From Candidatus Campbellbacteria bacterium (GTDB lineage: Bacteria; Patescibacteriota; Minisyncoccia; Phycocordibacterales; JABAAK01): a DNA stretch of 64,000 nt. The stretch spans positions 1,895 through 65,894 of the forward strand of contig JAPPQH010000015.1 of NCBI GenBank assembly GCA_028817035.1, read 5' to 3'. This document shows, piece after piece, positions 4,775 through 60,806 of this stretch. Position 1 is the stretch's first letter; every line of letters starts with the position of its first letter. A program made the translations under genes and the position numbers. The notes below the pieces were generated by a model that was not told the DNA's origin, made no database searches, and was given only the letters and a program-made list of their open reading frames with translations.

Positions 4775-4847
4775 CGGGGAATGGTGTAACGGCTAACATT
4801 CTCGCTTTGGGAGCGAGCGACTCCGGGTTCGAATCCCGGTTCCCCGA
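4775..4847 (+). tRNA. tRNA-Pro (anticodon TGG)
   Basis: Acceptor CGGGGAA/TTCCCCG, anticodon stem CTCGC/GCGAG with loop TTTGGGA, T-arm CCGGG-TTCGAAT-CCCGG. Confidence 0.85.
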
Positions 4848-4892
4848 CATTAAATTATTACTTAATAGGGAAGAAGGCAGGAACTTTTTATT
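4832..4892. repeat. 61-bp direct repeat copy 1. It includes the last 16 nt of tRNA-Pro (att-like)
   Basis: aatcccggttccccgacattaaattattacttaatagggaagaaggcaggaactttttatt is identical at 4996-5056. Confidence 0.85.
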
Positions 4893-4995: not shown

Positions 4996-5056
4996 AATCC
5001 CGGTTCCCCGACATTAAATTATTACTTAATAGGGAAGAAGGCAGGAACTTTTTATT
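4996..5056. repeat. 61-bp direct repeat copy 2 (duplicated tRNA-Pro 3' end plus flank)
   Basis: Exact copy of 4832-4892, 103 bp downstream of copy 1. Confidence 0.85.
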
Positions 5057-5095: not shown

Positions 5096-5977
5096 ATGTC
5101 AAATGAACACTCAAAAAAAGTCCCACCTTTTGCTGACTTTTTTAATCCAATAATAAAAGCACTTAAAGAATTAGGAGGTAGTGCTTTAAGAAATGAAATT
5201 GAAAATAAGGTTATTGAAATAATGGGTATTACTGAAAAGCAGGTTAGTTATACATACAATAATAATGATAAATCTATAGTGCTTGATAGAATAGGCTGGG
5301 CACTATTTTATTTAAAGAAAGGCAAAATACTGAAGAGTGGCGGTCGTTCAATTTGGGAATTAGTCAAAAAAGACCAAAAAGAGATAGATGATGTAAAAGA
5401 GTTTATCAAACAGATTAATAAAGAGAGTAGAGAAAAAAAGAAATATCTTGAAGAAGAAAGTATTGAAATAACTCCACAAACAATTGAAGAAGAAAACTTT
5501 GATGAAATTCTCTTGAAAAAATTAAAAGAACTCACCCCTCTGGCCTTTGAAAAATTTTGTAAAAAATTACTTGAAAGAACTGGAGTCACAAATGTTGAAG
5601 AAACATCCTATTCAAATGATCGTGGTATAGATGGGACTGGTGTATTAAAAATACAAGGTTTGGTCAGTTTGCGTATAGCATATCAGTCAAAAAGATATAA
5701 CGAAGTCACTGTTGCTTCTAAAACAATTAGAGATTTCCGTGGGTCTCTTCCTTCTAATGTTGATAAAGGTATAGTTATTACCACTGGAAAATTTACTTCG
5801 GCAGCAAGGAAAGAAGCAATTAGCTCAGAAAAATCAAAAATTATTGATTTAATTGATGGCGAGGAATTGGTAAATATGATGAAAGAATTTAAAATGGGAG
5901 TTGAAACTGAAGACATCAAATCCATAATAAATATTGATGATGAATACTTCAAGCAATTTGAAGAGGGCAAAAAATAA
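5096..5977 (+). CDS. mrr: Mrr-family type IV restriction endonuclease (Mrr_N winged helix plus Mrr_cat PD-(D/E)xK domain)
   Basis: N-terminal Mrr_N-like region (GWALFYLKKGKIL). C-terminal catalytic core GIDGTGVL...QSKRY...GIVITTGKFTSAARKEA...IDLIDGEEL. Confidence 0.8.
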   Translation: MSNEHSKKVPPFADFFNPIIKALKELGGSALRNEIENKVIEIMGITEKQVSYTYNNNDKSIVLDRIGWALFYLKKGKILKSGGRSIWELVKKDQKEIDDVKEFIKQINKESREKKKYLEEESIEITPQTIEEENFDEILLKKLKELTPLAFEKFCKKLLERTGVTNVEETSYSNDRGIDGTGVLKIQGLVSLRIAYQSKRYNEVTVASKTIRDFRGSLPSNVDKGIVITTGKFTSAARKEAISSEKSKIIDLIDGEELVNMMKEFKMGVETEDIKSIINIDDEYFKQFEEGKK

Positions 5978-7129: not shown

Positions 7130-9523
7130 ATGGAAAAACCTAAATTTAGAGGAGCAGATAGGAGGGGAACATCTATTTTAGAATCATCCCGAGAAAAAGA
7201 AATTTTGAAAAACTTTTCTCCAGAGGAAGCTAAGATTATAAAAGATAGAAAAAGTGTATTGTCAGCCTTGGGGTATTTCATAGGAAAAAATTTCTCTATG
7301 CCGATTGTTTTAGGATTGCCAAGTGAATCAAATCCGAGTGGTTGGCATTGGGGTAAGGCGAATGGAGAAAGTTATATACAAATAAACGCGAAAGATTTAC
7401 TGGAGAAACCCATGGATTATTTGCGTTATCTTATTTCTCACGAAGGTGGGCATGAGCGAGTTTCCAGAGTAGGATTTATACCTCCTGAAGAATGGAAACA
7501 GCCTGGTTTTGCTCTTATGATGAACTCCATTGAAGATCCCAGAATGAACAACTTTGTCGCAGAGGCATATCCTCCAATTCGAGGATTGATGCATAAAGTT
7601 TATAAAGAAGAGTTTGGATCTGAAAAGAAGGGTGAGGAGCTTGCAAAGCAAACTTTAGGTTTTCAACCACTACATGCCCAAGCTTCTAGTGAATATATAA
7701 AACAATGGATGAGGCAAGAAAAAGGGCGGGACTTTAAGATAGACGGGGGTTTGCCAAAAGAAGTGAAAGATGTTGTCAGAAAAACTCTATCATCAGCTGC
7801 TCGTTCATGGAGGCTTTTTCCAACCAAAGATATGGCTGATGGAAAAGAATATGATGAGCTGGGATCAACGGGCGAAGAGTCCATCGTCCAACACGCCCGT
7901 GCATCCTATGAAGTAAATAAAAATGAAATTTGGCCAGAATTCAGAAAATTAATTGCTCAAGATATTGAAGATCAAAAAATACAGGAAACCATACAAGATA
8001 TGAAAAATCAAAAAGGGCATGGGCAAGAACAAGCAGAAGAGCAAGAACAACAGCAAGGACAGGGAGGTGGACAAGGACAACAGCAGGAGCAAGAACAACA
8101 GCAAGGACAGGGAGGTGGACAAGGACAACAGCAGGAGCAAGAACAACAGCAAGGACAGGGAGGTGGACAAGGACAACAGCAGGAGCAAGAACAACAGCAA
8201 GGACAGGGAGGAGAAGGACAACAGCAGGAGCAGGGTGGTGCGTGCGCTGGGGGGCAATCACCAAGTATTCCCCAAAAATTAAAAGACAATCTTTCTTCTG
8301 AAGAACAAAGAGATTTAGAAAATGCCATCAATAACTCTCTTGGGCAGTCTGGGGAGGAGGGGCAGGGTGAAAGTAAAAATATCACACCAGTTCCCCTTGA
8401 CTCATTGTCAGAAGAATTAAAACAAAAAATAAGAGAATACATTGAGTCATTGCCCGAAGGCGAAAGAAGAGAGATTGAAGAAAGGGCAAGACAAGCCATA
8501 AAGGAATTTAATGATGCTTTAAATAAAGAGCTGGAGGGTAAGTTAACCAAAAATCCAGAAGAGATAGAGGCTGAACAAAAAGAACAGCAAGCACAAGCAC
8601 AAGAAACCCAAGAACAAGCAGAAGAGCAAGAACAACAGCAGGGACAGGGAGGAGTACAAGGACAACAGCAGGGGCAAGGACAGGAACAGCAAGAACAGCA
8701 AGAGCAAGTGCAAATATATGATGACACCGAAGGCGAACCATCCGAAAACAATGCTGCTAACCAAGAACCAGAAAAACACACTACCAGAAGGTGGAGAGAA
8801 CATTTTCGCCAAGATTTTCATGAGGATATGAATGCATATAGAGAATATCGCCAAAATTTATTAGCACTTATTAATAAAACAAAAAATGATTTTAAGCGCA
8901 TATTGATACCACAAAAGAGTACTTGGCAAGAGGGGCATAAGGTAGGAGGTAGAATCAATATCGGTCGACGCATTCAAGAAAAAGCAAAGGGTATTTCGGT
9001 AGTGGAAAGCAAGGCGTGGCAAAGAAGAGAACATCCAAAAAAAAATAGATATGCAATCTCTCTGCTGGTTGATTTGTCAGGCTCTATGTGGGGAAGAAGT
9101 ATCGAAGAAACCTTTAAATCAGTTATTGTGCTTGTTAATGTCTTGAACAGCTTGGGAATTAATACAGAAGTGCTTGGTTTTAATGATGAATTGAGTGAAT
9201 ATCAAAATTTTGGACAGCCAATGTCAGAAGAGGTAAGAGAAAAAATAAGCGGAATGATTCAAGCAGCTGACGGAGGAACTAATGTTTATCGTGCAACAGA
9301 TATTGCTTTGGAACGGCTCTCAAAACAAAGAGAAGAACAAAAGATGTTGATAACTCTCAGCGACGTTGAATTATCTGAACTACAGGATCTTGTAGAAGAA
9401 AAAGAGAAAACGCTTAAAAACACAAATATTACCCACATAGATATTGGTACGGTTGATGGCAAGACCGTTGGGGAAATTATAGAAAACATAAAAAAATTGA
9501 TTGAGAAAGAAAAGACAACATAA
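7130..9523 (+). CDS. Multidomain protein with three parts. N-terminal putative zincin-like metallopeptidase domain (HEGGHE = HExxH). Central Q/G/E-rich low-complexity linker with perfect tandem repeats. C-terminal von Willebrand A domain with a DxSGS MIDAS motif. Resembles the DUF2201_N + vWA architecture that pairs with MoxR-like ATPases
   Basis: LISHEGGHERV; (EQEQQQGQGGGQGQQQ)x3.7; vWA region LLVDLSGSMWG...GGTNVYRATDIA...LITLSDVE. Confidence 0.7.
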   Translation: MEKPKFRGADRRGTSILESSREKEILKNFSPEEAKIIKDRKSVLSALGYFIGKNFSMPIVLGLPSESNPSGWHWGKANGESYIQINAKDLLEKPMDYLRYLISHEGGHERVSRVGFIPPEEWKQPGFALMMNSIEDPRMNNFVAEAYPPIRGLMHKVYKEEFGSEKKGEELAKQTLGFQPLHAQASSEYIKQWMRQEKGRDFKIDGGLPKEVKDVVRKTLSSAARSWRLFPTKDMADGKEYDELGSTGEESIVQHARASYEVNKNEIWPEFRKLIAQDIEDQKIQETIQDMKNQKGHGQEQAEEQEQQQGQGGGQGQQQEQEQQQGQGGGQGQQQEQEQQQGQGGGQGQQQEQEQQQGQGGEGQQQEQGGACAGGQSPSIPQKLKDNLSSEEQRDLENAINNSLGQSGEEGQGESKNITPVPLDSLSEELKQKIREYIESLPEGERREIEERARQAIKEFNDALNKELEGKLTKNPEEIEAEQKEQQAQAQETQEQAEEQEQQQGQGGVQGQQQGQGQEQQEQQEQVQIYDDTEGEPSENNAANQEPEKHTTRRWREHFRQDFHEDMNAYREYRQNLLALINKTKNDFKRILIPQKSTWQEGHKVGGRINIGRRIQEKAKGISVVESKAWQRREHPKKNRYAISLLVDLSGSMWGRSIEETFKSVIVLVNVLNSLGINTEVLGFNDELSEYQNFGQPMSEEVREKISGMIQAADGGTNVYRATDIALERLSKQREEQKMLITLSDVELSELQDLVEEKEKTLKNTNITHIDIGTVDGKTVGEIIENIKKLIEKEKTT
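8042..8230 (+). repeat. Perfect 48-bp tandem repeat (about 3.7 copies) inside the vWA-protein gene. It encodes the 16-aa unit EQEQQQGQGGGQGQQQ. A diverged copy lies at about 8600-8700
   Basis: caagaacaacagcaaggacagggaggtggacaaggacaacagcaggag is repeated head-to-tail without mismatches. Confidence 0.9.
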
Positions 9524-36952: not shown

Positions 36953-37495
36953 ATGAATACAATAAATCAAAAACTAAAAGAATCTTTCAAGGCAATAGGG
37001 AAACAGAGAAATCTGAAAAACCCAATGCAAGCCTTCAAACTGGAGAAAATAGTCATCTCTGCAGGTGTTGGTCGTGTGAAAGACAAGTCACGCATAGAAC
37101 TCATACAAGACCGCCTCGCAAAAATAACAGGATACAAACCAGTTCCGTGTGCCGCAAAAAAATCAATCGCATCTTTCAAACTCCGCCAAGGCGACATAAT
37201 AGGATACAAAGTAACACTAAGAGGAAAAGCAATGGAAGACTTTCTTGAGAAATTTATAAACATAACACTCCCACGAAGCCGTGACTTTCGCGGAATAACC
37301 CCAAAAGGCATTGACAAAGCAGGCAACCTCACAATAGGGATACAAGAGCACATAATCTTCCCAGAAACCTCAAACGAAGAAGCAAAAGACATATTCGGAC
37401 TCGCAGTAACACTTGTTACAAACACAACAAACCACGAAGACACAAAAGCATTCCTAACCTACCTCGGCATCCCCTTTAAGAAAGACACTGCCTAA
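36953..37495 (+). CDS. rplE: 50S ribosomal protein L5
   Basis: Order and similarity. Confidence 0.9.
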   Translation: MNTINQKLKESFKAIGKQRNLKNPMQAFKLEKIVISAGVGRVKDKSRIELIQDRLAKITGYKPVPCAAKKSIASFKLRQGDIIGYKVTLRGKAMEDFLEKFINITLPRSRDFRGITPKGIDKAGNLTIGIQEHIIFPETSNEEAKDIFGLAVTLVTNTTNHEDTKAFLTYLGIPFKKDTA

Positions 37496-37516
37496 AACAA
37501 GGGTTATAATATAATC

Positions 37517-39505
37517 ATGCAAAAAACCACTGCATTATTACTTGTCGCTTTTTTATTATTAGCCCAACCATCTATTTCAGTTCAAGCACAAGTACCAATC
37601 GTCCCATCCCAAACACAGACACCAGTTGTCCCAATCCAAGAGACACAAGTTGTTGAACCCCAAACATGGGCACCAGTCGTTCCAGCACAAACTCAGCAAG
37701 AGAAACAATCCGCTGATGATAAAGAAGATGAAATACCAGTCATCCAAAAAGAATGGACTGATGATGAACTTGTTAATGAAGCACCGATATATAGAACAAA
37801 CGATAGAGAAGATTATGAGGAAACATTAAGTTTAGAAAGAGAAGAAGAAGATGAACGAAGGAGAGAGGAAGAAGAATATGAAAAGTGGAGAGAAGAAAGA
37901 GATAGAGAAGAGGAAAACGATGGCTCAGTTGAGTTGACCATTAAGGATGCAGAAAAGATTTTCAAATCACTTTCTGTGGAAGAAAAGCATAGTGGAAAAA
38001 TAGAGGCCATAGAAAAAATTGTTCAAAAAATAGTTGATAAAACTCATGCCAGAGAAAGCAAGGATGTTGTTATCGTGTACAACGAGCCAAAGGATATAAT
38101 ACGACAAATTGAAGAGATGCTTAGTGAAGAAATACTGGAGAATATAGAAAGAGTGATTTTTGAATGGCAAACAAAAACCATCGGCAGAGGACATATTGAA
38201 ATTGGTCGAGATGCTTTTATATTAACTAAATACTATAGAAATGGAAAAAAGATGTCAGAAAAACACTATGGTTATCTAGACCAAGTGCCTTGTCCATGGA
38301 GAGAATGGTATGAGGACGGTCAAATATCTAATGAAATGCTTTGTTTTCCGAAAAAAATTCAGAAAGTGTATTTTAAGAATGGAGAATTGCAAATTAAGAG
38401 AACGCTTATTGAAGGCAAATTTAAGGAGGAGTGGTGGTATGAGAATGGGCAAATAAAAGAAAGGTTTGATGGTGAGTTGAGAGAGGAGTGGTGGAGGTCT
38501 AGACCTATAACAACACGGGTTGAAAGAAATCTGAAGTTAGAGCGGTGGTATAAAGACGGACAATTGGCAAGAAAAACTGAAAACGGTGTCACCAAAAGAT
38601 GGTATCAAAATGGACAACTAATGTCGGTGGGAGAAGAGGTTGAAAACGAAGTTACTCAATGGTTTGAAAAACCCAAATATACCGAGTGGTATGAAAATGG
38701 TTCTATTCATATAATAAAAAATGGTGGTATAACCAAATCATGGTATCCTAATGGTGAAAAAAAAGTTGATAAAGTTTCTGATGAAAAAAAATCAAGATAT
38801 GAGTCGTGGTGGGAAAATGGAAATAAAAAAGAAGAATCAATTGAGAAGATTGCACCAGATGGAAGGTGGCATGATAATCTTAAATGGTGGTGGGAAAATG
38901 GAAATTTAAGAACATCAGAATTTAGAATAGACAACGAAACATCTCGAATCAAAGAATGGCGTCAAGATGGAACTCCAAAATATGAGGCAGATTGGGAAAA
39001 AGGTTTTACAAAGATATGGTATGAAAAAGGACAAAAATCATCAGAGACACAATTTCTTGCCATAAAAAAGCCATCAGGGATATTAGATAAAGAAAATTTA
39101 AAAATTATTATGGCAATGTATTGGTATAAGAATGGCAAGAAATTGGCTGAATTTAAAGATGGAAAATTGCAAGTTTGGAATATGTTGGGAATAATTATGA
39201 ATGGACTCCAGGCCAAGAGGCGCTTTTGTGAAAAAGATGCTCATTGGGTTGAGAGATATGGGTATTATGAATGTGATGGATGGGGAGGTCCAGATAATCT
39301 TAGTTGTGAACAAATCAATGGCAAAGTTATCGGCTACCATAATGGTTGCCGTTGCAGAGGTGAAGACTGCCTCGGTAAAACATGCCAAGCAGCAGTAGTA
39401 TATTCCTGCCAAGTGCAGAAAATTGAGCAACCTAAAAAGATTTTGATGATACATAAATTGAGAAACACAAACCCTTTAACTACATCACTGCCTACAACAT
39501 TTTAG
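37517..39505 (+). CDS. Secreted repeat protein with four parts: signal peptide, P/Q/V-rich and acidic E/R-rich linkers, at least 12 MORN-variant (YwqK-like, WYxNGQ) repeats, and a C-terminal Cys-rich module
   Basis: MQKTTALLLVAFLLLAQPSISVQA signal. Repeats EWYEDGQ, EWWYENGQ, ERWYKDGQ, KRWYQNGQ, TEWYENGS, KSWYPNGE, ESWWENGN, KWWWENGN, KIWYEKGQ, MYWYKNGK. Tail contains 10 Cys. Confidence 0.65.
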   Translation: MQKTTALLLVAFLLLAQPSISVQAQVPIVPSQTQTPVVPIQETQVVEPQTWAPVVPAQTQQEKQSADDKEDEIPVIQKEWTDDELVNEAPIYRTNDREDYEETLSLEREEEDERRREEEEYEKWREERDREEENDGSVELTIKDAEKIFKSLSVEEKHSGKIEAIEKIVQKIVDKTHARESKDVVIVYNEPKDIIRQIEEMLSEEILENIERVIFEWQTKTIGRGHIEIGRDAFILTKYYRNGKKMSEKHYGYLDQVPCPWREWYEDGQISNEMLCFPKKIQKVYFKNGELQIKRTLIEGKFKEEWWYENGQIKERFDGELREEWWRSRPITTRVERNLKLERWYKDGQLARKTENGVTKRWYQNGQLMSVGEEVENEVTQWFEKPKYTEWYENGSIHIIKNGGITKSWYPNGEKKVDKVSDEKKSRYESWWENGNKKEESIEKIAPDGRWHDNLKWWWENGNLRTSEFRIDNETSRIKEWRQDGTPKYEADWEKGFTKIWYEKGQKSSETQFLAIKKPSGILDKENLKIIMAMYWYKNGKKLAEFKDGKLQVWNMLGIIMNGLQAKRRFCEKDAHWVERYGYYECDGWGGPDNLSCEQINGKVIGYHNGCRCRGEDCLGKTCQAAVVYSCQVQKIEQPKKILMIHKLRNTNPLTTSLPTTF

Positions 39506-39520
39506 AAATACATTAACAAA

Positions 39521-40537
39521 TTGTGTAGTATAGAATATATGGCTATCTCACTGAAAGAAATAAATGCATTCAAGACAGAAGAAACAACACAGGAAATTAT
39601 AGAAATAAGCACTGAAAATGAATTAAAGGACGCCGTAACAAAACACCCAGACCACATAGTTTTGGGAAAGGGAACAAATACACTTTTTGTAAAAAACATA
39701 TTCATCCCTGTTTTAATAAACGAGTTTAAGGGAATAAAGATACAGGAAGAAGACAAAGAATCAATAACATATATCATCGGAGGAGGGGAAATATGGACAG
39801 ATGTTGTAGACAAAATGTGTGAGAAAAATCTTTGGGGATTGGAATATTTATCAGGAATACCAGGAAGTGCAGGCGCAGGAGTTGTAAAAAACATAGGGGC
39901 ATATGGATCAGAACTCTCTGACATATGTAAAGCAGTAAATGTATATGATAAAGAAAAACAAGCATTCAGAGAAATAAAATCAAAAGATTGTAAATTTGGC
40001 TACAGAACCAGCATATTTGAGAAGATGCCAAACCAATACATCATAACAGATATTGTAATTACGATACAGAAACAAAACAAAAACGCAGAACAACAATTCC
40101 TCATCAACACGAGAAACAGAGGTGTGGGTACTCCAAAAGCATATACGCCAATAGAAATATCAAAAGAGATAACAAAAACAAGAAACAGAAAACTTCCATC
40201 CCCAGAAACAAGTCCAAACGCAGGAAGTTTTTTCAAAAATCCGATACTGAACGAAAAAGAGTCAGAAAATATATTACAAAAACATAAAAAATTAAAACAC
40301 TGGAAAACAGACGAGGGAACAAAATTTTCTGCAGGGGAGTTGATAGAATTGTGTGGAATGAAGGGCTATAAAGAAAAAACAGGAGCAGGAATATCAGAAA
40401 AACACGCATTAGTAATAATAAATAATGGAACAAAAAGGGGAAATGACATTTACTCCCTATCACAAAAAATACAAAAAGAAGTAAGCAAAAAATTTAAAAT
40501 AAACCTTGAGCCAGAAGTATCAATACACAAAGGTTGA
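39521..40537 (+). CDS. murB: UDP-N-acetylenolpyruvoylglucosamine reductase MurB
   Basis: FAD-binding N-domain and the LSGIPGSAGAGVVKNIGAYG / C-terminal SAGELIELCGMKG motifs. Confidence 0.8.
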   Translation: MCSIEYMAISLKEINAFKTEETTQEIIEISTENELKDAVTKHPDHIVLGKGTNTLFVKNIFIPVLINEFKGIKIQEEDKESITYIIGGGEIWTDVVDKMCEKNLWGLEYLSGIPGSAGAGVVKNIGAYGSELSDICKAVNVYDKEKQAFREIKSKDCKFGYRTSIFEKMPNQYIITDIVITIQKQNKNAEQQFLINTRNRGVGTPKAYTPIEISKEITKTRNRKLPSPETSPNAGSFFKNPILNEKESENILQKHKKLKHWKTDEGTKFSAGELIELCGMKGYKEKTGAGISEKHALVIINNGTKRGNDIYSLSQKIQKEVSKKFKINLEPEVSIHKG

Positions 40538-40591
40538 TATTCCCCCAGTTTTTGTGTATAATTTATGTGTAAATAATGATGTGAATATATT

Positions 40592-40756
40592 ATGGAAAAT
40601 TCAAACAAAAAATTAAATTACAATGCGACAAATAAGGTAGCAGACAATCAAACAAACACATTAACGCAAGAACAAATAAACGAAGTAATTAAATTTACTG
40701 CGGATTTTACTGTGAAAAAATATGGACACATCATTGAACGACTCTCAAAAGAATAA
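40592..40756 (+). CDS. 54-aa small ORF overlapping the start of the Doc-like gene by 35 nt. Candidate antitoxin (Phd-position) gene. Absent from the ORF track because it is under 60 aa
   Basis: ATG at 40592, TAA at 40754. Position and overlap are typical of type II TA operons. Its 3' end is part of the 57-bp direct repeat. Confidence 0.3.
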   Translation: MENSNKKLNYNATNKVADNQTNTLTQEQINEVIKFTADFTVKKYGHIIERLSKE

Positions 40757-40757
40757 T
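40701..40757. repeat. 57-bp direct repeat, copy 1 (left boundary of the island inside the ribosomal operon)
   Basis: gattttactgtgaaaaaatatggacacatcattgaacgactctcaaaagaataatat is identical at 44607-44663. Confidence 0.9.
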
Positions 40758-41204
40758 ATCAAGTTTCTTACAGAAAAAATTTTATTGGGTTTGTATGAAG
40801 CAGAATATGAAAAGGAGTATCTAACCTCCATATTCGGTGAATTTTTGCCAACTGAAAAAGAAAAATGGGTAAAAGAAATGGCTTCTATAATGTCAACCGT
40901 AGAAACAAGAAGCAATTTTTGCAATATGTCTTTAGATGAGGCAGTCGCTCGTGTCATGTTTTGCATAATAAAAGGACACAAACTTGTTGATGGAAACAAG
41001 CGATCTTCCATTTTGTGCATGGTGGGTCTGTATGCCCTAAACTTATATGTTTCAGATAAAGGTGTCGGCAACAAAGAGAGATTTACATTTGATCCAGAAT
41101 CCTTGTATCACAAGGTCAAGGAAATCGCTGCGCTTGACTCCCAAACAATAGATGACGAAAAAGTTATAGTTGATTTAACCGAGTTTCTAAAAACAAAAAA
41201 ATAG
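40722..41204 (+). CDS. Fic/Doc-family protein (death-on-curing-like toxin)
   Basis: Doc/Fic motif HKLVDGNKRSSIL (Hxx(D/E)GNKR). 160 aa. Confidence 0.65.
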   Translation: MDTSLNDSQKNNIKFLTEKILLGLYEAEYEKEYLTSIFGEFLPTEKEKWVKEMASIMSTVETRSNFCNMSLDEAVARVMFCIIKGHKLVDGNKRSSILCMVGLYALNLYVSDKGVGNKERFTFDPESLYHKVKEIAALDSQTIDDEKVIVDLTEFLKTKK

Positions 41205-41269
41205 GGACTTGTAATTTTAGGAAATCTTTGATATCATTTCCCTATTGTATCTAATATAAAAACTAATAT

Positions 41270-42034
41270 ATGGACAGTAATTTTGCCTATAAAATTAATA
41301 ACTTCATATTTACCCCCTGGTATGCTTTTTCTGCTTTTATATATAAGCGTTTTTCAAAAATTATATTAATTCTTTCTTTTCTGTCTTTCTTTTACCTTTT
41401 ATTTACAGGTCATTTTATAGAAATAGTTCTAGTACTGGTTAGCTCAATTCTTGTAGCACCATTACTTACTTTTTTATTAACAGAAACTTTTAATTTTATT
41501 ATTTTTACAAAAGAAGAAAGAAAATGTATGAAAGACTTTCAAAAAACATTTGCCAAATCAAATGTTACAGAACATTATAGCGGTTTTGCGCCAACTATTC
41601 CAACAGAAGCAGACGAGAAACTTTCTAGATTTCCAAAATATAAAATTTCACTTGTCGCAACAAGTGGCATACTCATTTCTTTGGTGGTTGTTTTGATTTT
41701 ATATACCGGATTATTGGGTTATTTTTCTAACACCAGTTTTTATAATGGGATAAATGTAATGCAATTGAACTATGCATTAATTTTTGTATTATATTTGTCA
41801 GTTGATTATCAAAGATTACTGTTAGAAATTTTTTATTCACATCTGCCCCATCTTTATCCCAATACAAGGTTTCTATTTCCTTTTAAAATAATTTTAATAT
41901 TGTTCTTGTGTGTAGTAATTTTTTTGGGTATAAGTTTATCATACACATCGTTTCTTTTGGGTGGTTCATTATTAATTTTAATGTTCTCTTTGACAATGTT
42001 TTTTAGCGATACTTCTTATATCGCAAAGTTATAA
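41270..42034 (+). CDS. hypothetical polytopic membrane protein
   Basis: About 6 hydrophobic segments. No family recognised. Confidence 0.45.
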   Translation: MDSNFAYKINNFIFTPWYAFSAFIYKRFSKIILILSFLSFFYLLFTGHFIEIVLVLVSSILVAPLLTFLLTETFNFIIFTKEERKCMKDFQKTFAKSNVTEHYSGFAPTIPTEADEKLSRFPKYKISLVATSGILISLVVVLILYTGLLGYFSNTSFYNGINVMQLNYALIFVLYLSVDYQRLLLEIFYSHLPHLYPNTRFLFPFKIILILFLCVVIFLGISLSYTSFLLGGSLLILMFSLTMFFSDTSYIAKL

Positions 42035-42076
42035 AGAAGCCAAATTGACCTTTTGCAATAACAAAAACACCAACCC

Positions 42077-42117
42077 AAAATAGCACAGTTGCAATTTTTG
42101 GCGTGGTTTGGTATCAT
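42077..42117 (+). promoter_or_regulatory. sigma70-like promoter element (TTGCAA-17-TGgTATCAT), copy 1, upstream of the 81-aa ORF
   Basis: -35/-10 spacing read directly. 39 of 41 bp identical to the element upstream of rpsN (44703-44743). Confidence 0.45.
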
Positions 42118-42148
42118 TTTTATCGCATTTGATACAGGCTAAAAACCT

Positions 42149-42394
42149 ATGGACAACAATCTCAACACAAAAGAAGAAATAATGGAAGAACTTGAAAAAC
42201 AGGGCGGAGAAATGAAAATAGGAATTAATAATAGTGAAAAGGAATCTATGGATAAATTTAGGGGGTTGCTTGATGAGTTAAACGATAAAATAACATATGA
42301 TGAAGGACCTTATATGCATATAGGTATTGGTAATGTGAATGACCCAGAACGATTTCCAGCCATTACTGAATTTTTTATCAGAAGGATAAAATAA
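42149..42394 (+). CDS. hypothetical protein (81 aa, acidic)
   Basis: ORF with a promoter-like element upstream. Confidence 0.35.
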   Translation: MDNNLNTKEEIMEELEKQGGEMKIGINNSEKESMDKFRGLLDELNDKITYDEGPYMHIGIGNVNDPERFPAITEFFIRRIK

Positions 42395-42427
42395 AAATAT
42401 GGACCTTTGTTTTGAGATATTGATTAT

Positions 42428-43552
42428 ATGAAAAGAAAAATTTTAGACTCAATTTGTGTTATTAATGAAATATTAGAGAAAAATCCTTTTAAACCAGAAA
42501 GTTCGTCGGGAAGTTGGAAACACAACACCACAGAAATAAATAAAGAAATTAAAAGATTAGGACTTGAAAATAATATTATTTTTGAAAAAAATACTTTCAC
42601 CATAAGAAATTTACACTTTAAAAGGGGAGGAGTACTTGCATTTAATAATAGTTATTTAATATCAATTCACTTTGAAAATAATATATTTGAGTGTGAGAAG
42701 GATGGTGCGGGTGTCAATATATCAGCAACTAATGCTCAAATTACATTTAAGAATAATTCTTTTAAAGAAAAGTTTCTTGAATTATTTATAGCTTCTATGG
42801 GTTGGCGAATTTCTTTTGTGAATAATTCTTTTAATAACTCATCATGTGGTATATTGACTGATCCATCTTTTTCTTCCAATGAAAAAAAACAAATTGGAAA
42901 TATAAAAATTGACTCAATAGTTTTGAAGCATAATAAATTTGAAAGCTTTGATTTATATGCAGGTAGTGGAAAAATAATTAAAGAAGTTATAGGCAGAAAA
43001 AATACCTTCCATGATTTTGGTATAGACGATGTTTCTAAAATAGATTACATATCTTTTTCCACAGATAATAAATTTATCCTAGAAGGTAAAAGGGAATTAG
43101 AGATTGACAGACTAAGAAGGACATTCGCAAAACTGAAATCAAAAAGTATAGAATCCAATTTTACGATAGAGGCTAATGACTTTAATGCCATAGAACTGGA
43201 TATTTATAGAAGAAATCCTAACCGTATAAAATTTGGAGATAAATTTTTATTATATATAGAGAAACATGTGAGCAACTTTAAAACTTCTTGGATTTCAGCA
43301 ATGGTATGGCTTCTAATAGTTAATACTGTAATTTATATTATATTAATAATACTTTTGGGGGAGTTTCATATAAATCTTAATTTATGGTTTACGTCACTAG
43401 ATCCACTTGTAAATTTAAATAGTTATCTAAAAGAAAAGGGCTATGAGCATTTTAATCGTGATTATATTTCCCATATTGACTTTATTAGAAGGATATTCAT
43501 TTTATTCTTTGCATACGAAATAATAAAATCCTTTAGAAAGTTTTCTAGATAA
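42428..43552 (+). CDS. hypothetical protein with N-terminal N/F-rich beta-helix-like repeats and one C-terminal TM helix
   Basis: Repeated xNNxF motifs (FENNIF, FKNNSF, VNNSFNNSS). Hydrophobic MVWLLIVNTVIYIILIILLG. Confidence 0.4.
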   Translation: MKRKILDSICVINEILEKNPFKPESSSGSWKHNTTEINKEIKRLGLENNIIFEKNTFTIRNLHFKRGGVLAFNNSYLISIHFENNIFECEKDGAGVNISATNAQITFKNNSFKEKFLELFIASMGWRISFVNNSFNNSSCGILTDPSFSSNEKKQIGNIKIDSIVLKHNKFESFDLYAGSGKIIKEVIGRKNTFHDFGIDDVSKIDYISFSTDNKFILEGKRELEIDRLRRTFAKLKSKSIESNFTIEANDFNAIELDIYRRNPNRIKFGDKFLLYIEKHVSNFKTSWISAMVWLLIVNTVIYIILIILLGEFHINLNLWFTSLDPLVNLNSYLKEKGYEHFNRDYISHIDFIRRIFILFFAYEIIKSFRKFSR

Positions 43553-43633
43553 TTTGATATAATTAACCCATTGTGTAATAAAAACCAATTATATGAACCT
43601 TAAGAAAATCTTACAAAACACAAAACCGACATA

Positions 43634-44014
43634 TCAAACCTGTCTTTCGTGGTTTGGGTCTATGTGGGTTACCATACAAAATTGCTCACATTGGATGCCA
43701 AATACCCTAAAGTTTTGGTTTATCCTAAAATGAAAGGGTCTGCCCAATTCTCTATCTTCTGCACTGTCTATCGCATTACGAATTTCACTTTTCATATGGC
43801 CCTTATCAATAGTTATGCCCCCATGCGCCCTATCCTTTGCCGCCCATTGTTTCCATGTTTGTCCATTTATTTCCTCCAACTTCTTAAAAATGAGTTTTAA
43901 ATTGATGACAAGCTGTTTTTTATTGGTTTTATCATTTGCCTTAAAATATCTGAAACTAAACACAACCTTATCCTCGGTGTGACTAGGCAATACCTTACTA
44001 CCAAAATCACCCAT
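43634..44014 (-). CDS. hypothetical protein downstream of and co-oriented with the Panacea-domain gene. Candidate toxin partner
   Basis: Only 3 bp separate it from the upstream Panacea gene. No recognisable fold. Confidence 0.4.
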   Translation of the reverse strand: MGDFGSKVLPSHTEDKVVFSFRYFKANDKTNKKQLVINLKLIFKKLEEINGQTWKQWAAKDRAHGGITIDKGHMKSEIRNAIDSAEDRELGRPFHFRINQNFRVFGIQCEQFCMVTHIDPNHERQV

Positions 44015-44017
44015 ACC

Positions 44018-44533
44018 CTACTCTATACTAAACACATCTCTATAATAATTTTTTATAGACTCATTTGATATTGGAATATGTTTCTTTCCTTCTTCATAGA
44101 CATCCTTCCATGGCTTGTGCTTGTGTGTTATATCAACAAGTTCTCTTGCAGAATATTTATCAAATATTTCTAAAGTTTTTTCCACTACCCATATAGTTTC
44201 TTCATTAAACTTATCAACATCACATTTTTCATTTGGTATCACACCTGCACCATTACTTTTGTATTCTTCGTAAACACTGTCTACGGCAGGTCCGTGCTTC
44301 CATGCCTCTATTGTTTCAGAAAATAGTGGTTTGTCATATCTTACTAATGATATAGCCTGAGCAAAGTATAGAAACTTAAGCAGTTTCATATTTGTTATAT
44401 CGTTTAAATCTTGGTCTTTCTCATAAGATTTACAAATAAACAACCTTGCTATATCAACTGCACTTGCTTTGTTAGAAAGTGTGTCCATATTTATTAAATT
44501 ATTATACACCAAAAGAGCAATAATCGCCAACAA
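44018..44533 (-). CDS. Panacea-domain (DUF4065, SocA-like) putative antitoxin
   Basis: Core KLLKFLYFAQAISLVRYDKPLFSETIEAWKHGPAVDSVYEEYK matches the DUF4065 signature (KLQKLLYxAQ...W..GPV). Confidence 0.65.
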   Translation of the reverse strand: MLAIIALLVYNNLINMDTLSNKASAVDIARLFICKSYEKDQDLNDITNMKLLKFLYFAQAISLVRYDKPLFSETIEAWKHGPAVDSVYEEYKSNGAGVIPNEKCDVDKFNEETIWVVEKTLEIFDKYSARELVDITHKHKPWKDVYEEGKKHIPISNESIKNYYRDVFSIE

Positions 44534-44606
44534 TCGTCATACAAACAGAGGGTATAAATATGTAGGGGAATAAGTAAAAATTGGGTTAATTTTTGATATT
44601 CTCTTT

Positions 44607-44663
44607 GATTTTACTGTGAAAAAATATGGACACATCATTGAACGACTCTCAAAAGAATAATAT
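44607..44663. repeat. 57-bp direct repeat, copy 2 (right boundary of the island). It carries a truncated copy of the Doc-gene start
   Basis: Exact copy of 40701-40757. Confidence 0.9.
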
Positions 44664-44702
44664 ATAGCCTATTAGGGCAGAAAAATAAAAGAGGAAGGCT
44701 GA

Positions 44703-44743
44703 AAAATAGCACGGTTGCAATTTTTGGCGTGGTTTGGTATCCT
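44703..44743 (+). promoter_or_regulatory. sigma70-like promoter element copy 2 (TTGCAA-17-TATCCT) about 100 bp upstream of rpsN. It is followed by a 12-bp palindrome ttgacttgtcaa
   Basis: Near-identical to 42077-42117. Confidence 0.45.
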
Positions 44744-44841
44744 TTAACCTATTGACTTGTCAATCTATGGGATGCTCCCTGTATTCTGATATAGAGAAGA
44801 TTTCATACGATATTGCTTGTCATAATAAAAATCGCGAGAGT

Positions 44842-45111
44842 ATGGCGAGAAAATCACTTATAACAAGAAACGAAAAAAGAATAAAGTTGGCGAAAAAATA
44901 CGAGAAAAAGCGCAAAGCATTAAAGGCGGCTAATGATTACATTGGTCTACAAAAACTTCCAAAAAATGCTTCGCCTGTTCGTATTCGTAATCGTTGTTTC
45001 ATAACCGGCAGGTCGCGGGGTTATCTTCGTGCTTTTGGAATTTCAAGGATATGTTTTCGCGAGGAAGCACGCAAGGGTAATCTCCCAGGAGTAAGAAAAT
45101 CATCATGGTAG
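44842..45111 (+). CDS. rpsN: 30S ribosomal protein S14 (long type)
   Basis: [24 protein letters not shown]...[24 protein letters not shown]. Confidence 0.85.
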
Positions 45112-59852: not shown

Positions 59853-59900
59853 TTATTTTACACCATATTACGAAAAATAGGGAGAAATGAAAGACCACCC
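59853..59900. repeat. 48-bp direct repeat copy 1 (the immediate upstream region, i.e. 5' leader or promoter, of the 115-aa gene)
   Basis: ttattttacaccatattacgaaaaatagggagaaatgaaagaccaccc is identical at 60757-60804. Confidence 0.9.
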
Positions 59901-60073: not shown

Positions 60074-60751
60074 TTACTTAGTGGACCTAATTCTTCTTGG
60101 ATATTCCCAAACATCTAATATTTTTGGTTTTATATAATTCTTATAAAGTCCTACAGAACCATTGTATTCATATTTTGTAAAAACTATATTAGCAATCAAG
60201 TCTGCCAATTGAATGCCATAGCATTTCTTAGAATTTTTATATTTTACTAAGATACTTTCACAACAATGATTATCATTGTGTATTGATTCAACATTAATAT
60301 ATTCCTCCAACGAATATTTTGATCCAGTTTTTAGGTTTCTATTATCAATACAAACCTCAACTGATTTTGTTGATATTTTTCTTGTGATTTTTTCTTGGAA
60401 TAATCTATTAAGGGTATAGTTAAAAGCCAACTCTTTAATACTATCTGAGTTTATATATTTTTCTTTATAATATTGTGCTGCAGTATCAATAATGCCAAGC
60501 CAAATGTTAAAATCTATTCCTTTACTATCTATCTCACTCAATATTCTCTTTTTCAGGGCATAATTCATATCAGATCCTTTTATCTCCCCCAAGGTTTTTA
60601 AAGTAGAATTATTCTTTATAACCTTCTTTGCTAAATTTTTCCAGCTTTTATAATGTCTTCTTGAAGAAAAATAAATAACTGGAAATACAAAATATCTGCC
60701 ACCCCTTCCTAAATTTCCACTTTCATCAATATAAAGCCTCTCTATTTCCAT
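60074..60751 (-). CDS. DUF3800-family protein
   Basis: N-terminal LYIDESGN and C-terminal IQLADLIANIV are the two hallmark DUF3800 motifs. Confidence 0.6.
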   Translation of the reverse strand: MEIERLYIDESGNLGRGGRYFVFPVIYFSSRRHYKSWKNLAKKVIKNNSTLKTLGEIKGSDMNYALKKRILSEIDSKGIDFNIWLGIIDTAAQYYKEKYINSDSIKELAFNYTLNRLFQEKITRKISTKSVEVCIDNRNLKTGSKYSLEEYINVESIHNDNHCCESILVKYKNSKKCYGIQLADLIANIVFTKYEYNGSVGLYKNYIKPKILDVWEYPRRIRSTK

Positions 60752-60756
60752 ATCGC

Positions 60757-60804
60757 CTTATTTTACACCATATTACGAAAAATAGGGAGAAATGAAAGAC
60801 CACC
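60757..60804. repeat. 48-bp direct repeat copy 2 (upstream region of the DUF3800 gene, directly after the ftsK stop)
   Basis: Exact copy of 59853-59900. Confidence 0.9.
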
Positions 60805-60806
60805 CC

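Follow-up and report, generated by a model that had tools for sequence, protein, structure and literature searches.

How do accessory genes come to lie between rplE and rpsN, the genes for ribosomal proteins L5 and S14, within the normally contiguous S10-spc ribosomal cluster, and why are they bracketed there by exact direct repeats? We addressed this question in a 64-kb window (the whole stretch of DNA analyzed; positions are counted from its first letter) of a contig from a Candidatus Campbellbacteria metagenome-assembled genome (MAG), for which identical contigs exist in the Logan assembly of SRR10996920. The explanation that we favor, with a probability of roughly 0.55, is that the gap, which lies between core genes, acts as a recombination hotspot devoid of mobile-element genes, in which short internal repeats drive the rearrangement of cassettes. 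The assignment as a hotspot is based on two features: the cargo varies between the same core genes, and mobility-associated proteins are absent.

The rplE-rpsN gap spans 7.3 kb (37496-44841) and holds, besides a repeat-bounded island, the genes for a 662-amino-acid (aa) MORN-repeat protein and for MurB (Table 1). An initial annotation of the window had placed the island between rplE and rpsN, which is right for the gap as a whole, but its immediate neighbors are murB and rpsN. The island is bounded by an exact 57-nucleotide (nt) direct repeat, R, whose two copies are spaced 3904 nt apart; both the repeat and its right-hand coordinates had been annotated exactly, and only the left copy had been set 2 nt too far to the left. 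By arithmetic estimate, about 1e-25 chance matches of a 57-mer are expected in 64 kb, and R ranks fourth-longest among the exact direct repeats within the window. The left copy lies in the overlap of a small open reading frame (ORF), ORF54, and a gene for a Doc-type toxin candidate. R contains the start of Doc in a second frame, and the right copy therefore encodes MDTSLNDSQKNNI-stop, corresponding to Doc codons 1-13, as the initial annotation had recognized. The G+C content (GC) of the island is 29.9%, the minimum of all 4-kb stretches in the window (mean 38.4%, standard deviation 2.7%).

All genes that had been listed for the island are present: the Doc/Fic-like gene with its overlapping 54-aa ORF, the genes for a polytopic membrane protein, an 81-aa protein, and a membrane-anchored protein, and a convergent pair that includes a Panacea gene. 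Searches of these seven ORFs against Pfam, NCBIfam, PADLOC, and PHROG gave no match to integrase or transposase families, in agreement with the initial annotation, and no relaxase. Site-specific recombinase families were likewise absent from the seven ORFs and from 10 other large ORFs of the window. Repeat analysis found no terminal inverted repeats at the island ends, the island DNA had no match in plasmid and phage collections, and the core of the 57-mer was not found in viral contigs. A recA gene is located within the window.

Variable cargo between rplE and rpsN

We compared the gap with relatives retrieved as short contigs from exact-protein look-ups and one metagenome scan. In a genome-collection scan, L5 and S14 lay <200 nt apart in 78 of 80 genomes. 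The scan of the collection by S14 alignment was dominated by Bacteroidota and was used as a control; it yielded two Patescibacteria loci, and a scan with L5 alone found no relative. In the Patescibacteria contigs L041 and L042, the L5-S14 gaps measure 301 and 636 nt, and the longer one contains terminator-like hairpins, a 133-aa ORF, and a promoter-like site.

Among genomes that are 87-97% identical in ribosomal genes, we found at least five arrangements upstream of rpsN, with rplE on the same contig in L035 alone. In L035, L5 is followed by p126 and Panacea (the convergent pair, on the minus strand), then the promoter and leader of S14, then S14; this gap is about 1.2 kb by count, lacks the MORN gene, and contains the Panacea pair only, apart from a relic of the ORF54-Doc promoter. 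Two contigs from one sample show the order Panacea (minus strand)-ORF54-Doc-MurB (L033) and MurB-180 nt-S14 (L036), the latter with murB directly upstream of S14. From the S14 promoter onward, L003 and L036 are 96.8% identical, but the gene immediately upstream differs (an unknown gene in L003, murB in L036), so that cargo differs even near species-level identity. In L006, whose S14 is 79% identical, Dus, L19, and other housekeeping genes lie upstream, and there is no L5 within 10 kb.

These arrangements show an L5-S14 junction already dissolved in this clade and filled with different cargo in genomes 87-97% identical in ribosomal genes. The contiguity of rplE and rpsN assumed by the initial annotation thus holds for the 78 of 80 genomes above but had been broken here before the insertion. 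We conclude that rplE-rpsN in this clade is a break in both transcription and synteny, with 0.3 to >10 kb of varying cargo. The description of the region as accessory, AT-rich, rich in toxin-antitoxin genes, and different between close relatives was borne out. The proposal that 3.85 kb arrived as one acquired unit was not, given that the Panacea pair adjoins S14 in two relatives, L035 and, as regards the Panacea gene, L033.

Consistent with a break in transcription, S14 appears from its sequence to have its own promoter and leader. The promoter region (P') forms part of a second repeat, overlooked in the initial annotation and interleaved with R: 43 nt at 42077 and 44703, 41/43 identical (P and P'). 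Homology with relatives L003 and L036 begins at P'. The leader is about 97 nt long, shows 88-93% conservation in the relatives L003, L035, and L036, and has a predicted long imperfect hairpin. It had no Rfam match, and the four sequences compared were too similar to reveal any covariation. Now that the spc operon is split, the leader could be an autoregulatory site. In the Escherichia coli spc operon (rplN...rplE-rpsN-rpsH...), the genes form one transcript that is autoregulated by S8. The window retains the canonical gene order on each side of the gap; unlike in E. coli, transcription must restart at rpsN.

Origin of the right repeat copy and recombination at R and P

The right copy of R lies in a context that can be compared directly with L036. 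The MurB-S14 junction of L036 reads TTGATATTCTC-CC-ATTAGGGCAG... (begins ATTAGGG), followed by the promoter, and has no 57-mer; the right side of the island in the window reads TTGATATTCTC-TTT-[57-mer]-ATAGCCT-ATTAGGGCAG.... The spacer between R and P' is 91% identical to the MurB-S14 spacer of L036 over 35 nt. Because this spacer is native and the empty site of L036 lacks the 57-mer, a duplicated target or an attachment-site (att) core is ruled out. This removes the main inference of the initial annotation, acquisition by recombination at a short duplicated target, for which a single 57-mer was sought at the empty site of relatives.

What occupied this position in relatives is suggested by the Panacea side. 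In the window, L033, and L035, a TTGATAT -35 box is found at a distance of 106-114 nt from the start of Panacea (distances by hand count). L033 carries a full ORF54-Doc module beside Panacea, and L035 an approximately 50-nt relic of its promoter and 5' untranslated region (UTR). To its left, the right copy is flanked by a sequence whose homologue is the region between Panacea and ORF54 in L033 and not murB. Based on the conserved distance to Panacea, the right copy of R occupies the ORF54-Doc module position of relatives. On sequence grounds, we read it as either the remnant of a second module or a patch copied from the intact one, and we infer that a decayed second module is the better of these two accounts. 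A degenerate full-length ORF54 to the left of the right copy, suggested by tblastn, was rejected upon translation, which revealed a stop codon and similarity limited to 17 repeat-encoded residues. We also rejected one-step paths from the L033/L036 order to that of the window (excision of a circle at the TTGATATYC boxes, tandem duplication, and microhomology deletions), as none gives the bases that flank the right copy.

Contigs from other samples contain junctions at these repeats. L005, which is 99-100% identical to the window, has the order ORF54-R-spacer-hybrid P'/P-p81 (p81 being the 81-aa gene). It is 100% identical through ORF54 and the 57-mer, and its hybrid promoter has the 5' difference from P' and the 3' difference from P. 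L005 is the product expected of exchange at both R and P. L004, from a third assembly and another sample (1131 nt, 1 mismatch), shows the ORF54-R-Doc junction.

These observations can be joined in a mechanism. The S10-spc cluster is broken between rplE and rpsN in this Campbellbacteria lineage, and accessory genes would have come to collect in the gap, which has core genes on both sides and carries no mobile-element genes. The content of this hotspot would be gained, lost, and reshuffled by RecA-type recombination of the host and not by an element-encoded recombinase; we take this recombination to be probably RecA-dependent. R and the interleaved 43-bp promoter repeat would supply short homologies at which the cassettes between them are deleted, excised, or swapped. 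Further support for a hotspot comes from two other accessory insertions in the window, which are bracketed by exact repeats of 48-61 nt (described below).

Competing explanations for the repeat-bounded island

Several points weigh against the hotspot explanation. All relatives are short metagenomic contigs, and the L005 variant is a single contig of 509 nt. The two 57-mers are 100% identical, although the sequences around the right copy bear no relation to those around the left one, and L033 differs from the window at 3/57 repeat positions. An old relic should have diverged, and perfect identity therefore calls for a recent duplication or gene conversion. The TTT and ATAGCCT that flank the right copy fit no simple one-step deletion, and no parsimonious series of events leads from the L033/L036 order to that of the window. 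Finally, a Logan contig assembled at k=31, L001, is a closed 3904-bp loop, unbranched at the exit of the repeat, which a circular or tandem excess of the unit fits at least as well.

The last point leads to an alternative that is unlikely in our judgment. The 3904-bp unit (R, Doc, membrane protein, P, p81, the 374-aa gene p374, p126, and Panacea) may be an excisable circle that entered the chromosome by a Campbell-type single crossover at a pre-existing 57-bp homology, an event that yields direct repeats equal to the shared homology. L001 has exactly the length of such a unit, 3904 + 30 nt, running from base 1 of the repeat to base 30 and closing on itself with a k-1 overlap, and the left-flank contig L034 stops 30 nt into R. 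Excision at R and integration at P would reproduce L005, as re-entry at the 43-bp promoter repeat yields that arrangement, and the unit has the lowest GC in the window. The loop fits a circle, but it equally fits any 57-bp chromosomal repeat assembled at k=31, and L004 shows a chromosomal ORF54-R-Doc junction in another sample. The unit has no replication, partition, or recombinase gene that we could find, no plasmid or phage DNA match, and a repeat core that does not occur in viral contigs; it would carry Doc without ORF54 or its promoter, and it includes a Panacea pair that is resident beside S14 in relatives. We assign a still lower probability to the idea that R and P form a switch operated by host recombination, through which a 3.9-kb (or 2.6-kb) cassette cycles between chromosome and circle and re-enters at either repeat. 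If true, such a switch would couple Doc to and uncouple it from its antitoxin and promoter and would change the genes behind the copies of the S14 promoter, giving population-level on/off control of toxin-antitoxin or membrane-protein expression in the ribosomal cluster of an episymbiotic bacterium of the candidate phyla radiation (CPR).

The initial annotation offered, as its second choice, the scar of a tandem duplication, which comes closer to the evidence than its first. In its simple form, a tandem duplication of ORF54-Doc was followed by the insertion of foreign genes between the two modules, the distal one of which decayed to 57 bp. The right copy is indeed a module fragment, and the murB/ORF54 junction uses a TTGATAT microhomology that is also the end of the MurB-S14 spacer of L036. 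Yet the Panacea pair is older at the locus than the left position of ORF54-Doc (L035 and L033), so the "filled-in" part is not a newcomer, and the left flank of the right copy resembles the Panacea-ORF54 intergenic region of L033 instead of murB; we therefore consider the simple form quite improbable. An assembly artefact, in which the assembler joined co-occurring strains, or a separate molecule with the 57 bp in common, in an order absent from any cell, also has little likelihood. In its favor, contigs of up to three independent assemblies (k=31 and k=141) begin or stop exactly at 40574, 44607, and 44765, independently of k, and the right junction, Panacea-R-spacer, is complete in the MAG contig only. 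Against it, the ORF54-R-Doc junction was assembled independently in the sample of L004, the passage from the Panacea upstream region into R is backed for 30 nt by Logan, the R-spacer-P' junction is backed by L005, and the NCBI accessions MDD9868166-176 of the MAG, which the proteins of the window match at every residue, are consecutive in the gene order of the window. The coincident contig ends suggest additional structural variants in the sampled populations. We give almost no credence to a classical mobile element, whether an integrase-type island whose att sites measure 57 bp or a transposon that duplicated its target site. Direct repeats around AT-rich accessory genes recall such elements, but integrase, transposase, relaxase, and terminal inverted repeats at the island ends are all lacking, 57 bp far exceeds the target duplications of transposons (2-15 bp), the empty site of L036 is entirely without the 57-mer, and R comes from within a coding overlap that is kept throughout the Doc family.

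Genes of the locus and their relation to known systems

Table 1. Coordinates of the features between rplE and rpsN, in window positions
Feature	Position	Strand	Remarks
rplE (L5), left core flank	36953-37495	+	Pfam Ribosomal_L5 on the identical Logan gene; NCBI MDD9868166.1
662-aa MORN_2-repeat protein	37517-39505	+	Pfam MORN_2 6.9e-14; starts 21 nt after rplE
murB (UDP-N-acetylenolpyruvoylglucosamine reductase)	39539-40537	+	Pfam MurB_C and FAD_binding_4
Promoter-like site of ORF54-Doc	40534-40562	+	TTGATA-17-TATAAT; 11/12 consensus, best in region
ORF54, candidate antitoxin of Doc, 54 aa	40592-40756	+	C-terminal motif TVKxYGxxIxxLxKE conserved
Left copy of 57-bp repeat R	40703-40759		ORF54 codons 38-54 + stop, overlapping Doc codons 1-13
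Doc-type Fic-fold toxin candidate	40722-41204	+	Catalytic loop H-K-L-V-D-G-N-K-R
254-aa polytopic membrane ORFan	41270-42034	+	27% GC; 4-5 hydrophobic segments
P, copy of S14 promoter region	42077-42119	+	TTGCAA-17-TATCAT; precedes 81-aa gene
81-aa acidic ORFan (p81), putatively driven by P	42149-42394	+	Also on recombinant contig L005
374-aa ORFan (p374)	42428-43552	+	Repeat-rich soluble part and C-terminal membrane segment
126-aa candidate toxin (PanT), p126	43634-44014	-	RelE/ParE-like predicted fold
PanA-type antitoxin (Panacea/DUF4065), 156 aa	44018-44488	-	Pfam SocA_Panacea 2.5e-20; phrog_1281 3e-47
Panacea upstream region	44489-44606		Ends in TTGATATTCTC (44593-44603), the -35 box of the ORF54-Doc promoter
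Right copy of R	44607-44663		Isolated piece of the ORF54/Doc overlap, apparently non-coding
Spacer s	44664-44702		Last 32 nt are native S14-upstream sequence
P', S14 promoter region	44703-44745	+	TTGCAA 44715-44720; TG-extended TATCCT 44738-44743
S14 5' leader	44746-44841	+	Conserved; predicted long hairpin
rpsN (S14), right core flank	44842-45111	+	Pfam Ribosomal_S14

The left copy of R belongs to a conserved two-gene module of Parcubacteria. The -35 hexamer of its promoter-like site overlaps the murB stop codon, and the site is kept in L033. ORF54 and the Doc gene overlap by 35 nt, and ORFs of 54-59 aa precede Doc in L033, L122, and L124 with the same overlap and the same C-terminal TVKxYGxxIxxLxKE; because the small ORF and the overlap are kept in these three, the two genes form a conserved unit. 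The Doc-like protein scores just above the cutoff of Pfam Fic (24.3 bits against 24) and below that of NCBIfam TIGR01550 DOC_P1 (23.5 bits against 38.65), and the family profile aligns to PDB Doc chains 9vzc and 3k33 across the catalytic loop. In this loop, H86-K-L-V-D-G-N-K-R94, Leu replaces Phe, and the residues vary little or not at all among 14 homologues. The homologues, about 40 in number with identities of 44-62%, are mostly metagenomic proteins together with Kaiserbacteria MAGs and retain the loop as KGHKL-x-DGNKRSS. ORF54 had no Pfam, NCBIfam, PADLOC, or PHROG match below E = 0.05, and family searches found no Phd/YefM-type similarity in it.

The best-known counterpart is phd-doc of phage P1, a type II system whose Doc phosphorylates EF-Tu, according to Castro-Roa 2013 as cited in PMC8832971. 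As in phd-doc, a small gene precedes that of a Fic-fold toxin (loop HxFxD(A/G)NKR in Doc, HKLVDGNKR here); the differences lie in the lack of detectable Phd/YefM similarity in ORF54, the conserved 35-nt gene overlap, and the DOC_P1 score below cutoff. By analogy, ORF54-Doc may be a type II pair that acts like phd-doc. A further observation concerns the Kaiserbacteria MAG GCA_028820405.1 (L121/L122, 5478-6471), in which the homologous small-ORF/Doc module stands divergently beside the rplJ-rplL (L10-L7/L12) operon and is another toxin-antitoxin module adjoining ribosomal-protein genes.

At the other end of the island, the Panacea gene matches PF13274 with 73.9 bits (cutoff 25.7) and has a promoter-like site at 44530-44501 on the minus strand. 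The p126 gene starts 3 nt after it on the same strand. The p126 family is rare (14 representatives among 1.84 billion proteins); sequence searches of Pfam and PDB gave no match, only the fold comparison was informative, and no relatives were found in viral contigs. Its fold is predicted to be RelE/ParE-like. The pair is present in the window and in L035, with 83% protein identity between the two p126 proteins. Among PanT clusters, many have no known domain, and ParE and mRNase toxins are among the Panacea partners (Kurata et al. 2022, PMC8832971). The pair resembles these PanA-PanT systems in having the Panacea gene immediately upstream of a small unrelated protein, the common antitoxin-first order, and differs from them in that the p126 family is rare and without a Pfam match, its fold is a prediction, and the pairing is found in two related genomes only. 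Compared with the RelE, YoeB, YafQ, and HigB interferases, p126 is about 35 residues longer, has no sequence-level similarity, and is paired with Panacea, not with RelB, YefM, DinJ, or HigA. If analogy with known systems is a guide, both modules of the island probably work as type II toxin-antitoxin pairs, in which Doc would phosphorylate EF-Tu and p126 would cleave mRNA on the ribosome.

The Panacea gene is altered in one further contig, L037 (ERZ23499976), where, from window-equivalent position 44079, its 3' part is replaced by 172 nt of unrelated DNA (46% GC) with an inverted repeat. This may be an insertion or a chimeric contig; the replacement sequence found no match elsewhere.

The remaining cargo is heterogeneous. 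The genes for the 254-, 81-, and 374-aa proteins are the three low-GC ORFans of the island. In p374, about 280 soluble residues with hxNNxF repeats are followed by a transmembrane segment (286-322), and a homologue search found none. The MORN-repeat protein has an N-terminal hydrophobic segment (residues 4-26). The NCBI version of its gene encodes 662 aa and the version in the MAG's ENA contig 342 aa, and Logan contigs break inside it at 38264/38293; internal repeats make the gene assembly-sensitive. For murB, we do not claim recent horizontal transfer on the basis of its 95-97% identity against 87-94% for ribosomal genes, as the segments are short and the difference is small.

Exact repeats also occur elsewhere in the window. 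In a 61-nt direct repeat (4832-4892 and 4996-5056), the final 17 nt of tRNA-Pro(tgg) are joined by 44 nt from downstream; its copies are about 103 nt apart with hairpin-rich DNA between them, and copy 2 is followed by a gene for an Mrr-type restriction endonuclease (5096-5977). The arrangement resembles an att-type duplication at the 3' end of a tRNA. In two minus-strand genes that adjoin each other, the 5' UTR/promoter region is an exact 48-nt repeat (59853-59900 and 60758-60805), which encloses one DUF3800 gene (60074-60751), with a 115-aa gene on one side and ftsK on the other; P/P' show the same theme, a duplicated promoter around an accessory gene. The gene for a VWA-domain protein (797 aa, 7130-9523) contains long exact tandem repeats at 8039-8230 (125- and 77-nt matches, 48-nt period).

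It is well established that hotspots can lack mobile-element genes and evolve by recombination at the core genes beside them (Oliveira, Touchon, Cury and Rocha 2017, PMC5635113). The rplE-rpsN gap is like them in having differing cargo between the same core-gene pair, no integrase or transposase, and a turnover attributed to homologous recombination. It differs in lying inside the S10-spc cluster, at rplE/rpsN, of a Patescibacteria lineage, and in that its short internal repeats (57 and 43 bp) are involved as well.

The finding means that a near-universal ribosomal block can break and serve as a landing pad for accessory genes in a CPR lineage with reduced genomes. This is relevant to phylogeny and binning that assume synteny of the ribosomal block, and to how flexible gene pools exist in tiny genomes without mobile elements. 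The locus also offers two uncharacterized pairings, Doc with a new 54-aa partner and Panacea with a rare partner of predicted RelE fold, and natural variants exist in which the short repeats have visibly recombined.

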